64,000 nucleotides of DNA, from assembly GCA_963702425.1 (NCBI GenBank), contig CAVPCQ010000006.1, forward strand, positions 32,001 through 96,000, given 5' to 3'. Under the pieces are notes generated by a model. The model was not told where the DNA came from, ran no database searches, and worked only from the letters and a program-made list of their open reading frames with translations. Shown piece after piece: positions 53,486 through 57,275 of this stretch. This DNA comes from an uncultured Acidobacteriota bacterium (GTDB taxonomy: Bacteria > Acidobacteriota > Polarisedimenticolia > J045). The position numbers and the translations under genes are program-made. Each line of letters opens with the position of its first letter. The stretch's first letter is position 1.

Positions 53486-54859
53486 ATGGGCCGATCGGCA
53501 ATCCGTTGGGCAAGGCCGGCGAAGCTCGCGGGACTCACCGCCGCAGTCGCGCTGGGCTGGTCCGCCCTTGCCGCGCGCGGGGCCCCGGCGGCGGCTCCGG
53601 CGGTGATCCTGAACGTCACCGGGGCGGTCCACGGCTACCTCGACGTCTGCGGCTGTGAGACCTTCCCCCTCGGGAGCCTCTCGCGGCGCGCAGCTCACAT
53701 GAGCTCTGACCAGCGACGCTGGCCGGCGGCGAGTTCGTTCGCGGTGGACGCCGGGGATTTCTCGGATCTCCCGGGACCCTCCGGCGAGGTCAAGACGCGC
53801 GCCCTGGTGGAGGCGATGAACCAGCTCGGTTACCGCGCGGCGGGCATCGGCCAGCGCGACCTGGCGCTCGGGCCCGCAGCACTGCTCGAGCTTGGGAGGC
53901 TGGCCCGCTTTCCATTCCTGTCCGCCAACCTGGTGCGGGTCGGGCAGGGGACCAGCTGGCTTCCGGCGAGCCAGGTGGTGGAGGCTGGCGGGCTGAAGAT
54001 CGGGATCGTGGCGGCGATGAATCACGACCCGATCGCGAGCTGGGCGCTTCCGGACGGCTCCAAACTCGTCACGATCGATCCGGTCCCCGCGGTCGAGCGC
54101 GCGATGAAGGGCCTTCGGGGCAAGGCCGACGTCGTCGTCCTGCTCGCCACCATGCCGTTCGAGGACGCCCGCTTCCTGGCCCGACGGGTACCGGGAATCG
54201 ATCTGGTGTTCGGCAGCTTCGGAGAGCGGGTCACGCTCACGCCGGAAGTCGAGGGCGCCACCCGAATCCTGTACCTCGAGGACGAAGGGAAGTTCCTCGG
54301 CCAGGCGACGATTTTCCGGCCGGGCGAGCCGGGCGGCCGCCCGACGGTCGAGGTTTCGCGGCACCAGCTGGGCGCCGACGTCGGCTCGGATCCCCGCTGG
54401 GAAGCCTTCACGGTCGAGGCCATGGCGCGGGCGCAGCAAGCGGACGACGACGCGCGGCGCCTGGCCGATCCGGTGGCGGAAGCACGCTACGCGGGAGCGG
54501 GAGCCTGCGCGGGGTGTCACCTCTCGATCGTCGAACAGTGGTCGAAGACCGCGCATGCCGAGGCCTGGCGAACTCTCGTCCGCGCCGGCAAGAAGGCGCA
54601 GGCCAGCTGCATCCCGTGCCACGTCACGGGCCATGGCCAGGCGGGGGGCTTCGTCGACGAACGGACGACGCCTCACCTGTCCGGCGTGGGGTGCGAGGCC
54701 TGTCATGGTCCCGCGGCGCAGCACCTCGCCGATTCGGCCCGCCCTTACGGTCGGACCGGCCTGGCATCGTGCACGTCGTGCCACACCTCCGAACAGGACC
54801 CGACCTTCAACTATTACCAGGATCGACAGCGCGTGATGCACGGCTCCGGTTCGCCCTGA
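53486..54859 (+). CDS. Exported 5'-nucleotidase-like domain fused to a tetraheme cytochrome c domain
   Basis: Signal peptide; HGYLDVCGC, VDAGD, FPFLSANL; heme motifs CAGCH, CIPCH, CEACH, CTSCH. Confidence 0.85.
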   Translation: MGRSAIRWARPAKLAGLTAAVALGWSALAARGAPAAAPAVILNVTGAVHGYLDVCGCETFPLGSLSRRAAHMSSDQRRWPAASSFAVDAGDFSDLPGPSGEVKTRALVEAMNQLGYRAAGIGQRDLALGPAALLELGRLARFPFLSANLVRVGQGTSWLPASQVVEAGGLKIGIVAAMNHDPIASWALPDGSKLVTIDPVPAVERAMKGLRGKADVVVLLATMPFEDARFLARRVPGIDLVFGSFGERVTLTPEVEGATRILYLEDEGKFLGQATIFRPGEPGGRPTVEVSRHQLGADVGSDPRWEAFTVEAMARAQQADDDARRLADPVAEARYAGAGACAGCHLSIVEQWSKTAHAEAWRTLVRAGKKAQASCIPCHVTGHGQAGGFVDERTTPHLSGVGCEACHGPAAQHLADSARPYGRTGLASCTSCHTSEQDPTFNYYQDRQRVMHGSGSP

Positions 54860-54864
54860 GCCCG

Positions 54865-54895
54865 AACAAAAAGAACCCGCCGGCGAACCGGCGGG
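54865..54895 (-). terminator. Intrinsic terminator of the mini-sigma transcript
   Basis: CCCGCCGG-TTCG-CCGGCGGG followed by TTCTTTTTGTT on the minus strand. Confidence 0.8.
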
Positions 54896-54986
54896 CGGGG
54901 TGCCATGGGAGGAGGTCGGTCAGTGGGGGGAGGGGGAGTTGCTCCTCCCTCGGGGCCGGCGAACCGGCCCCAAGCACCACACTTCG

Positions 54987-55346
54987 TCAGGACGGAGAGA
55001 ACTGGAGCTGCGAGCGCAGGGAGCCGAGACGCTCGCGGAGCTTCATCTTGGCTTCCTTCTCGAGCTGGCGGACGCGCTCGCGGGAGAGTCCGAGGATCTT
55101 GCCGATCTCCTCGAGGGTCATCTCGTCGTTGCCCATCACGCCGAAGCGCTTCAGGAGGATCAACCGCTCCCGCTCCGGCAGCTCTTCGAGCGCCCGACGG
55201 GTCAGTTGGACCAGCTCCTTCTTGTACACGTCGTCTTCGGGACGCACCGAACCGGGGTCTTCCATGAGCTGGGAGAGCCGGGTCTCACCCTCGTGATCAA
55301 CGAAATCGTCGAGGGACTTTTCCTTCATGAGCCAGGGAATCCACAT
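54987..55346 (-). CDS. Stand-alone sigma70 region 3.2 + region 4 protein (119 aa)
   Basis: SLDDFVDHEGETRLSQLMED (sigma finger), LPERERLIL..RFG, MTLEEIG..LGLSRERVRQLEKEA; GAGGAA RBS. Confidence 0.85.
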   Translation of the reverse strand: MWIPWLMKEKSLDDFVDHEGETRLSQLMEDPGSVRPEDDVYKKELVQLTRRALEELPERERLILLKRFGVMGNDEMTLEEIGKILGLSRERVRQLEKEAKMKLRERLGSLRSQLQFSPS

Positions 55347-55375
55347 GGTCGGTTCCTCGCTTGGACCCACGAATA

Positions 55376-55391
55376 AGCAAGGGTCGTGCCA
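55376..55391 (-). promoter_or_regulatory. sigma54 (-24/-12) promoter
   Basis: TGGCAC-GACCC-TTGCT, exact match to TGGCAC-N5-TTGCW, 30 nt upstream of ATG. Confidence 0.8.
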
Positions 55392-55532
55392 CCTGTAAAC
55401 GTCTGAAAAGGGGCAGTTTTTCGCTTCCGTGCTACGTCAGTTTGGCGCAGGCCGCCTGACTGGCGCAGGAGTTGGGTCAATCCCGCCCCCGTTTCTTGGC
55501 CCGTCCGCCGCTCGGCTGTACCCTGTCGCGCG

Positions 55533-57275
55533 ATGGGTCGCGTCCGAGTCCTTCCCCCCGACATCGCCGACCGAATCGCCGCAGGCGAGGTGGTCGAACG
55601 TCCGGCGTCCGTTCTGCGGGAGCTGCTCGACAATGCCCTCGATGCGGGGGCCCGCCGGGTGGAGATCGAGCTGGCCGGCGGGGGGCGCGACCTGGTATCG
55701 GTCGCGGACGACGGCTGCGGGCTCGACCCCGACGATGCCCTGTTGGCTTTCGAACGCCACGCCACGAGCAAGATCCGCACCGGGGACGATCTCGAAAAGG
55801 TACTTACGCTCGGGTTTCGCGGCGAGGCTCTCGCCGCGATCGCTGCGGTGTCCCGGGTCGAGCTCCTGACCTGCCCGGCCTCCGGCGGGGAGGGGACCCG
55901 GGTTCGGATCGATCGGGGACGGCTGTTGGGGGTGGAAAGGGCGAGCCGCGCGCCGGGCACGACAGTGCAGGTCTGGGAGTTGTTCCTCGGGATCCCGGCG
56001 CGGCGGAAGTTCCTGAAGTCGCCCGAGACCGAGCTCGATCACTGCCTGCGGGTCGTCACGCGGGCGGCGCTCGCGCGCTCGGAGGTTGGTTTCTGGGTCC
56101 GGCAAGGGGGGCGCACCCTGATCGGTTCACCCGCGGCGGGAGAGGCGGCAGGCCGGGTCGCGGACCTGCTCGGATCGAGGCTGGCGGCAGGGCTCGTGCC
56201 GATCGTGGGGGACGGCGGCCGGGTCGCGGTCAGCGGGTGGGCGGCCCGCTCGGACCTCCATCGGCCGACTCGCGACGACATCCATCTCTTCGTGAACCGC
56301 CGGCCGGTGCGCGATCCGCTGCTGGTTCGCGCCGTGCTCGACGCCTACCGTCCGGGCCTTCCGGGCGGGCGCTACCCGGTCTCGGTGCTCTTCATCGACC
56401 TCGCGCCCGAGGACGTCGACGTGAACGTCCACCCGGCAAAGGCCGAGGTTCGGTTCGCGCGACCGCAGGAGGTCCGGGCGCTGCTCGTCGGGGCGATCGG
56501 TCGGGCCCTACGGGGTCGCGCCGCGCTGCCGGTCTTCTCCGCTGTTACCGGTGGGTCGCCTGAGGGAACCCCGCCGTCCGGCATGGCCGCCGCTGCGCCG
56601 GCGTCGATCGAGGCCGTGATCCGGGATGGCGCGGCGTCGAGCTGGGTCACCGACGCGGGCTCGCCGACCCCGGCGCGCCTCGCCTTCGAGGGGACGGACG
56701 CCCCCGCCGCGCGGCCACTCGCCCAGTACGCGAACTGCTACATCGTTGCCAGCGACGAACGCGGGCTGATCGTGGTCGATCAGCACGTGGCGCACGAGCG
56801 GTTGATCTACGAGCGGCTGATCCAGGAGGCCGAGAGCGGTCCGATGGCGCGACAGCTGTTGCTCTTCCCGCAGACGATCGAACTCCCACCCGGCGGGGTC
56901 GAGTCGCTCGAGCGGGAACGCGCGCTCTTCGAGCGCCTCGGGTTCCGCTATGAAGCGTTCGGCGGCAACACGGTGATCGTGCGCGAGGTGCCCGCGGTCC
57001 TCGGGCGGGAAGCCCGGCCCGCGACTCTGGCCGACCTGGTGGCCCGCACGACCGAGGGGGACCGGGCGGGGGCGGAGGCGATGTTCCCGCGCCTGCTGGC
57101 CACCGTCGCGTGCCACAGCGCCGTGCGCAAGGGGATGCCCCTCTCGATCGATCAGATGGGCTACATCCTGCGCGGCCTGGCGGCGTGCGAGATTCCGGGC
57201 CACTGCCCCCACGGCCGCGTGATCTCGCTCCGCGTCGATCTCGCGGCGCTGGACCGCGGTTTCGACCGGGCCTGA
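55533..57275 (+). CDS. mutL: DNA mismatch repair protein MutL
   Basis: IAAGEVVERP, HATSK, GFRGEAL, DVNVHPAK, DQHVAHER, ACH, CPHGR. Confidence 0.97.
   Translation: MGRVRVLPPDIADRIAAGEVVERPASVLRELLDNALDAGARRVEIELAGGGRDLVSVADDGCGLDPDDALLAFERHATSKIRTGDDLEKVLTLGFRGEALAAIAAVSRVELLTCPASGGEGTRVRIDRGRLLGVERASRAPGTTVQVWELFLGIPARRKFLKSPETELDHCLRVVTRAALARSEVGFWVRQGGRTLIGSPAAGEAAGRVADLLGSRLAAGLVPIVGDGGRVAVSGWAARSDLHRPTRDDIHLFVNRRPVRDPLLVRAVLDAYRPGLPGGRYPVSVLFIDLAPEDVDVNVHPAKAEVRFARPQEVRALLVGAIGRALRGRAALPVFSAVTGGSPEGTPPSGMAAAAPASIEAVIRDGAASSWVTDAGSPTPARLAFEGTDAPAARPLAQYANCYIVASDERGLIVVDQHVAHERLIYERLIQEAESGPMARQLLLFPQTIELPPGGVESLERERALFERLGFRYEAFGGNTVIVREVPAVLGREARPATLADLVARTTEGDRAGAEAMFPRLLATVACHSAVRKGMPLSIDQMGYILRGLAACEIPGHCPHGRVISLRVDLAALDRGFDRA

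Follow-up and report, generated by a model that had tools for sequence, protein, structure and literature searches.

Introduction

As a rule, bacterial sigma factors are regarded as single units; the exceptions are a few cases from phages, mobile elements and Bacillus in which adjacent genes encode the two halves. In split sigma factors such as B. subtilis SigO-RsoA, Tn916 Sig7-Sig8 and T4 gp55-gp33, region 4 is a separate small polypeptide, and SPO1 gp33-gp34 is a further precedent (10.64898/2026.10.01.756105). Here we describe a gene, which we call mini-sigma, located in a 64,000-nucleotide (nt) stretch of DNA from an uncultured Acidobacteriota bacterium of the class Polarisedimenticolia (assembly GCA_963702425.1, contig CAVPCQ010000006.1, positions 32,001 to 96,000). 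This whole stretch is the window referred to below, and the genome to which it belongs (G000) has 5.1 Mb. As judged from its sequence, the mini-sigma product is region 3.2 (the acidic finger) and region 4 of sigma-70 and nothing else, and the gene stands behind a sigma-54 promoter. Our analysis confirmed that it represents a real, previously undescribed protein family, for which we tentatively propose a role in trans on RNA polymerase.

Several described systems come close to this arrangement. T4 gp33 is a small protein that binds the beta-flap of RNA polymerase and displaces sigma region 4, and it is not known to be a homologue of sigma factors. The sigma-like domain of PhyR is the basis of sigma mimicry in the alphaproteobacterial general stress response. 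In E. coli, the sigma-54 activator QseF/GlrR is reported to drive both the small RNA glmY and the sigma gene rpoE (PMC6075780), and another study concerns region 4 and the RNA exit channel (PMC7948647).

Mini-sigma differs from each of them. With the group 1/2 sigma-70 factors (RpoD, RpoS, mycobacterial SigB) it shares the sequence and fold of regions 3.2-4, the -35-reading motif and the acidic finger; unlike them, it is devoid of regions 1.1 to 3.1 and begins at the region 3.1/3.2 boundary with a conserved hydrophobic N-terminus of its own. Unlike the split sigmas, it has no recognised adjacent partner or lone region 2 gene, and it is chromosomal, class-wide and sigma-54-driven instead of belonging to a phage or a mobile element. 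The action that we propose would resemble that of T4 gp33 in occupying the flap site of region 4, but gp33 does not read DNA, whereas mini-sigma has a finger and a genuine region 4 in which the -35-reading residues are intact. As in PhyR, a domain derived from a sigma factor would serve regulation instead of initiation; however, the PhyR domain is ECF-like (extracytoplasmic function), fused to a receiver and degenerate for DNA reading, while mini-sigma is of the group 1/2 type, without a receiver and with its motifs intact. Finally, the QseF/GlrR circuit follows the same logic of one enhancer-binding protein and sigma-54 promoters before a small RNA and a sigma-type gene, but it differs in that mini-sigma is a sigma fragment and in that the binding site and the RNAs are unrelated. 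In the literature we found no description of a natural stand-alone region 3.2-4 protein.

Mini-sigma resembles regions 3.2 and 4 of sigma-70

The mini-sigma coding sequence (54987-55346, minus strand) encodes 119 amino acids (aa) plus a stop codon, with residues 1-35 resembling region 3.2 (the finger) and residues 36-113 corresponding to the helix bundle of region 4 with its -35-reading helix-turn-helix (HTH). Pfam recognises Sigma70_r4 (PF04545) at residues 52-105 (E 3.3e-19, 68.6 bits against a cut-off of 24.1 bits) and gives neither a region 2 (PF04542) match nor a full region 3 match in the protein. Among the NCBIfam models, residues 9-108 align to positions 176-275 of the 285-position RpoS model, and the RpoD models are matched over their final ~100 positions. 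The best full-length model, RpoS, remains below its cut-off (77.6 vs 378.7 bits) and only the generic sigma70-ECF superfamily model is passed (60.2 vs 42.9), which explains the names that mini-sigma matches carry in the databases. The family profile aligns to residues 498-604 of E. coli sigma-70, and its best sequence match in the PDB is residues 234-334 of mycobacterial SigB (E 4.5e-27). The AlphaFold2 model shows a confident four-helix region 4 at residues 36-113, with a predicted local distance difference test (pLDDT) of 76-92, and a disordered stretch over the N-terminal 35 residues; the structures that it matches best are sigma chains of initiation complexes and chimeras of sigma-4 with the flap tip. 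It is on the Pfam and NCBIfam matches, the profile alignment, the model and its structural matches that we read the protein as region 3.2 plus region 4.

The motif RERVRQ is invariant in all 27 aligned members and the RFG motif is invariant or nearly so. Identity to the tails of full-length sigma factors in the same genome is 36-43%. The mutL gene (Pfam) starts at 55533 on the plus strand, only 186 nt from the mini-sigma ATG and in divergent orientation, so that regions 1-3.1, including region 2, cannot fit in front of the gene. A first-pass annotation of the window, made from the letters alone, had described a 119-aa open reading frame (ORF) similar to a sigma C-terminus with intact RERVRQ and had noted the lack of space before mutL; Pfam, NCBIfam and the family profile bear out the former, and the length of the intergenic region the latter.

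A class-wide family under purifying selection

A word-indexed search with mini-sigma gave 87 matches among 111 candidates, and about 50 of the 87 are 113-123 aa long and 50-95% identical, those with names being metagenome-assembled genomes (MAGs) of Acidobacteriota. At E <= 1e-20, 40 of 60 relative genomes have a match (41 of 61 with the genome of the window). By reading of the table, 37 of the 60 contain true short members, defined as matches that begin at query residue 1-6 and do not lie inside a 300-aa sigma factor, including 20 of the 22 genomes of the window's family; full-length sigma factors account for the three remaining matches. Of 301 genomes sampled across the phylum, 18 have a match at E <= 1e-22, all of them in the window's class, and none of the 274 genomes outside it does (a count taken from family tallies). 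Candidatus Polarisedimenticolaceae, Terriglobia and Acidobacteriota MAGs appear in the record titles of related loci. The genome tallies include an unpublished genome (G034) that has no mini-sigma match and was kept out of the alignments.

The ORF is 115-119 aa long in 29 of 30 loci, and the thirtieth (L016) ends before the stop codon. The frame is often closed just upstream (open frames of 120-131 aa), and the gene is found on contigs of up to several Mb. We calculated the ratio of nonsynonymous to synonymous substitutions (dN/dS, NG86 method) for 19 orthologues of the family. The median over 160 of the 171 pairs was 0.059, indicating purifying selection; the remaining 11 pairs were unusable because of saturation or too low a divergence (dS of 0.05 or less). 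By segment, the ratio was 0.036 for residues 1-35, 0.047 for residues 36-108 and 0.28 for the last 11 residues; the finger segment is therefore as constrained as the HTH. A divergent mutL accompanies the gene in 28 of 30 loci, down to ~45% MutL identity; of the two loci without it, one is a paralogue located where a contig ends and the other is short. Paralogues of mini-sigma, ~50-68% identical and 114-119 aa long, are present in five genomes (L147:3991-4344, minus strand, L148, L149, L150 and L028). At L147, the one paralogue locus with its ORFs listed, no partner was seen and the neighbours seem unrelated, resembling, by eye, thiol-redox proteins. On the other side of mini-sigma in the window, a convergent gene (53495-54859, plus strand) encodes 454 aa with a C-terminal cytochrome c554-like multihaem part and is kept only within the window's family.

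We also looked at other proteins with an isolated or repeated region 4. A scan of genome contigs was dominated by ordinary sigma factors, and only 5 of its 80 kept loci are true members. Ten other short proteins with only sigma region 4, checked among the matches of a search of representatives, were set aside, all ten being on short contigs or on contigs that are not recorded; three of them cluster with proteins of 286-363 aa, two of these three being named partial. The high-scoring double matches P0091-P0096 and P0107 look like tandem assembly duplications of RpoD C-termini and were likewise rejected. A further set (P0089, P0090, P0095 and P0102-P0105) consists of metagenome proteins of 589-1722 aa with 6-15 separate region 4 profile matches.

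RNA-library contigs cover the gene

Part of the stretch was found in six RNA libraries, and four of these, from four studies, were aligned to the window. Their assembled contigs extend over 54891-55344, taking in the coding sequence, the 3' untranslated region (3'UTR) and, within the latter, the C/U-rich 10-mer GACCUCCUCC described below; two contigs from a single run match the window at 98-99% identity. The contigs of the four studies cover neither the cytochrome gene nor the intergenic region, and only 36 nt of mutL in one run.

A conserved sigma-54 promoter with an upstream dyad

A sigma-54 promoter with exact -24 GG and -12 GC elements is located at 55376-55391 (minus strand), its TTGC ending 30 nt before the ATG. 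The first-pass annotation had pointed to this promoter, and it is unique in the window, where TGGCAC-N5-TTGCW has one match against none in 100 shuffles. The looser form TGGCA[CT]-N5-TTGC[AT] has 14 matches in the 5.1-Mb genome, and two of the other sites precede ORFs that resemble, by eye, a type IV pilin (contig C36) and a flagellar protein (contig C31). In all 28 orthologous intergenic regions a GG[CT]A[CT]-N5/6-TTGC element is found upstream of the ATG, one of them with the 6-nt spacer, and it is kept despite diverged flanking sequence. The Shine-Dalgarno (SD) sequence GAGGAA, also proposed at first pass, lies at 55353-55358 (minus strand), 6 nt before the ATG, and purine-rich SD-like stretches are present at the same place in the orthologues inspected.

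Further upstream we found a putative activating site. The direct repeat TGGCGCAGG at 55443 and 55461, initially read as a plausible enhancer-binding-protein site, consists of half-sites of two adjacent dyads. The proximal dyad (55433-55449, minus strand; half-site TGCGCCA) is centred 51 nt upstream of the -24 GG, has one mismatch to the family dyad and is equalled in 0 of 200 shuffles, and a weaker distal dyad (55451-55467, minus strand) has the same left half-site 18 nt further upstream. In 16 of the 20 loci of the window's family a TGCGCCA dyad is centred 49-52 nt upstream of the -24 GG, and this fixed position supports the initial reading of the repeat; in the remaining four the best-scoring dyad is centred at -60 to -69. 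Compared with 200 shuffles per locus, none was as good in 10 of the 20 loci, and 11-27 of the 200 were in the weakest seven. No comparable dyad was found in eight mini-sigma loci of other families. Between this site and the promoter, an A/T-rich tract (55394-55421, minus strand) is kept within the genus and may be bent itself or be bound by a DNA-bending protein.

We take the dyad to be of the NtrC type. The genome contains 33 enhancer-binding-protein genes (PF00158 matches), all candidate activators, and none of them lies within the 64-kb window. A general nitrogen regulon was considered and rejected, as the dyad was found upstream of no other candidate sigma-54 promoter except that of the small-RNA candidate presented below. 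The genome is rich in sigma-54 components, with these 33 genes yet only 14 strict -24/-12 matches. The full-length sigma factor closest to mini-sigma (72 bits) is encoded ~2.4 kb from an enhancer-binding-protein gene (C16:150921-151589, minus strand, and C16:153975-154454, plus strand). The rpoN gene is at C6:151756-153171, and its co-distribution with mini-sigma was uninformative, since 60 of the 61 genomes examined have rpoN, including families without mini-sigma. In eight genomes of several families rpoN lies 40-66 kb from mini-sigma on the same contig, which probably reflects a conserved backbone order with no functional link.

A conserved 3'UTR element shared with a small-RNA candidate

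The transcript would end at an intrinsic terminator at 54865-54896 (minus strand), already noticed at first pass, with a 9-bp stem (54896-54875) followed by a T-run; the sequence of the stem is nearly invariant within the family. Throughout the family the 120-nt 3'UTR follows one order. A variable hairpin (54952-54971, minus strand), whose pairing is kept while its sequence varies between genera in the alignment as read by eye, is followed by a purine-rich SD-like run and a C-rich run (54926-54951, minus strand), then by the invariant C/U-rich 10-mer GACCUCCUCC (54908-54917, minus strand) and the terminator. The SD-like and C-rich runs can pair with each other or with the 10-mer, and GGAGGAG is present in 14 of 19 family 3'UTRs. 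The 10-mer is invariant in 16 of 16 aligned 3'UTRs with a mean column identity of 57%, the alignment being made without L011 (identical to L010 over the stretch) and without L021 and L025 (no motif), while L016 has no downstream sequence. By script count, 17 of the 19 loci in the family have it, as does 1 of the 9 that belong to other families.

We also asked where else the 10-mer occurs in the genome. It has 72 copies, of which a script flagged four with a T-run, and by eye a hairpin plus T-run follows it at two copies only, the mini-sigma 3'UTR and C17:208266. The latter copy belongs to a small-RNA candidate (C17:208000-208330, plus strand; L175:200-530) and lies ~100 nt behind a strict -24/-12 promoter at C17:208165, with two TGCGCCA half-sites upstream. 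The predicted transcript of ~110 nt folds as a stem, a single-stranded C/U tract containing the 10-mer and a terminator. This unit is kept in three of the four other genomes of the genus, with a 22-nt enhancer piece that is identical and a 3' half that is invariant. Rfam gave nothing significant in 54000-56000 of the window or at the small-RNA locus. The 10-mer resembles the anti-Shine-Dalgarno end of 16S rRNA, and because of this resemblance we infer that the mini-sigma 3'UTR and the small RNA might mask ribosome-binding sites.

Search for a region 2 partner and prediction of flap docking

The genome contains 29 region 2 matches by Pfam, 25 with an adjacent PF04545 match and two more with PF08281; the other two are ECF-like, without a Pfam region 4 and with a region-4-like C-terminus by eye. 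Its sigma factors include a clear RpoD, three mid-length sigma-70-type factors and one that resembles, by eye, the FliA type. We found no clear lone sigma-2 partner or truncated sigma without region 4 among the Pfam matches, which partners of the RsoA kind could escape. As the mini-sigma unit is monocistronic between its promoter and terminator, with mutL and the cytochrome c554-like gene as neighbours, the earlier suggestion that it could be half of a split sigma found no support in gene context or in this search.

Binding to the beta-flap had also been suggested. We aligned the flap of the genome's RpoB over 16 rows, with the unpublished genome excluded, and folded it with the mini-sigma alignment. 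The complex scored 0.40, against 0.00 for the best of three controls, and the verdict was 'weak support'; at least 40% of contacts are shared between runs, and the pLDDT of the partner is 60 or more. Among solved complexes 58 of 80 reach the pass mark, as do 2 of 110 mismatched pairs; at scores of 0.60 or under, only 7 of the 80 reach it, together with both of the passing mismatches. Because sigma-4/flap complexes have already been solved, the pass may be a memory of them, showing likeness and not binding by this copy. The suggestion of flap binding thus gains a weak in-silico pass, which may itself reflect the known structures.

Discussion

What could a free region 3.2-4 module do? The reading that we favour, tentatively and short of calling it probable, is that mini-sigma acts in trans, competing with or replacing region 4 of the resident sigma factors. 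An enhancer-binding protein at the upstream dyad would activate the sigma-54 promoter, and mini-sigma would be made only then. Its region 4 would dock on the tip of the beta-flap with the finger in the RNA exit channel, as in sigma-70-type factors, and the protein retains its -35-reading residues. It would thereby compete with or stand in for the resident region 4 and alter initiation by the sigma-70 family, the likely outcome being that housekeeping transcription is damped. We prefer an RNA-polymerase-bound, -35-reading module because it explains the constraint on the finger and the invariance of the -35 residues together, whereas a pure DNA binder or a pure decoy would explain only one of them; constraint on the finger is expected if the finger acts inside RNA polymerase, and a mere DNA binder would not need it. 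Moreover, the conserved C/U-rich 3'UTR element and the sibling small RNA with the same half-site suggest that the protein could be one arm of a sigma-54-triggered global slow-down.

Several points weigh against this interpretation. What the analysis shows is the anatomy of the gene, its conservation, the selection on it, its regulatory signals and its occurrence in RNA libraries; RNA polymerase binding, the consequence for transcription and what the RNA element does are inferred. Most of the affinity of a sigma factor for core polymerase comes from region 2, so that a fragment made of regions 3.2-4 might be a weak competitor at anything but high abundance. A pure competitor could do without the -35-reading residues, yet they are invariant. 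The docking site of region 4 overlaps that used by sigma-54, and a benefit to sigma-54 transcription is therefore not obvious. The flap prediction yields a weak pass only, and for a textbook pair. Paralogues in at least four of the five genomes are devoid of the sigma-54 promoter, the L147 copy having instead a clear sigma-70-type -35/-10 pair, which implies that the protein is not everywhere under sigma-54 control. Finally, the RNA-library contigs are of low depth and tell of presence, not of strand, ends or level.

Among the alternatives, the idea that mini-sigma is what is left of a full-length sigma gene in decay, or a product of faulty assembly, can be dismissed almost entirely. Short database entries with only sigma region 4 are indeed often contig-end fragments, but here the orthologues have a constant length with stop codons just upstream in many loci, and the low dN/dS, the conserved promoter and synteny and the contigs of up to several Mb rule this explanation out. 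Given these observations and the RNA-library contigs, it is well supported that mini-sigma is a selected and expressed stand-alone regulator and not a truncation, as the first-pass annotation had argued in calling it an expressed regulator and no remnant. Among possible modes of action that annotation had also listed a -35 repressor and an anti-anti-sigma. Such a regulator could also work as a sigma mimic, its free region 4 titrating an anti-sigma factor or another region-4-binding regulator while RNA polymerase stays untouched, and a sigma-54 signal would then set a sigma-70-type factor free or shift the balance around it. That proteins can mimic sigma factors is established (PhyR-NepR), region 4 is strongly conserved in its surface residues, which a mimic would require, and RpoD and the three mid-length factors offer possible targets. 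The protein even has a faint match to Pfam PhyR_sigma-like (PF22233; E 0.1, 12.8 bits), which falls under the 27-bit cut-off, and no receiver domain in its 119 aa. Against this, a mimic would be expected to show more than 36-43% identity to the sigma factors of its own genome, the idea does not account for the strong constraint on the finger segment, and no candidate anti-sigma was seen near the gene; we consider a mimic unlikely.

Somewhat less likely again, in our judgement, are two readings that each make use of the intact -35-reading residues. Mini-sigma could be part of a split sigma in which an unrecognised partner supplies the functions of region 2, the pair directing RNA polymerase to promoters of its own class. 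The finger and the -35-reading residues suit a working sigma part, partners of the RsoA kind are small and hard to detect, and two ECF-like genes have region 2 with no Pfam region 4 match. However, 27 of the 29 region 2 matches do have a Pfam region 4 and the other two have their region-4-like C-termini. Known split-sigma pairs are encoded side by side, whereas mini-sigma is alone between promoter and terminator, flanked by mutL and the cytochrome gene, and its paralogue at L147 has no partner beside it. The genes of the precedents are named as pairs, with Sig7-8 expressed together (10.64898/2026.10.01.756105). In the other reading, to which we give the same low probability, mini-sigma would be a free DNA-binding regulator that binds -35-like boxes without the autoinhibition of region 1.1 and represses or activates promoters, the mutL operon being the first candidate. 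Conserved divergent gene pairs often link a regulator to its target, and the pairing with mutL in 28 of 30 loci would fit this picture, as would the invariant DNA-reading residues. On the other hand, one region 4 domain by itself has little affinity for DNA, the mutL-proximal intergenic parts show, as read by eye, no -35-like box that is kept beyond the genus, and the constraint on the finger again finds no explanation. It is on this constraint, combined with the invariant -35 residues, that we come back to a module bound to RNA polymerase.

An extended form of the RNA-polymerase-bound model, which we regard as speculative and rather doubtful, is that one sigma-54-controlled transcript is a two-part global brake made of a sigma fragment and a C/U-rich RNA. 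In its protein part, the fragment would cap the flap and the RNA exit channel or take -35 reading away from the resident sigma factors; in its RNA part, the C/U-rich 3'UTR and the sibling small RNA under the same activator would mask Shine-Dalgarno sequences. If this were true, the initiation of transcription and that of translation would both be slowed by one enhancer-binding protein, and with a natural, chromosomal sigma region 4 working in trans, RNA polymerase would have a regulator of a new class.

In conclusion, a free region 3.2-4 module has been kept throughout the history of one bacterial class and placed under the control of the rival sigma-54 system. If it is bound to RNA polymerase, mini-sigma would be a natural tool to learn how regions 3.2 and 4 behave once separated from region 2, in what way sigma-54 signalling acts back on sigma-70 transcription and whether -35 recognition can be provided in trans, while the linked C/U-rich RNA elements point to a possible coupling of transcription and translation control.

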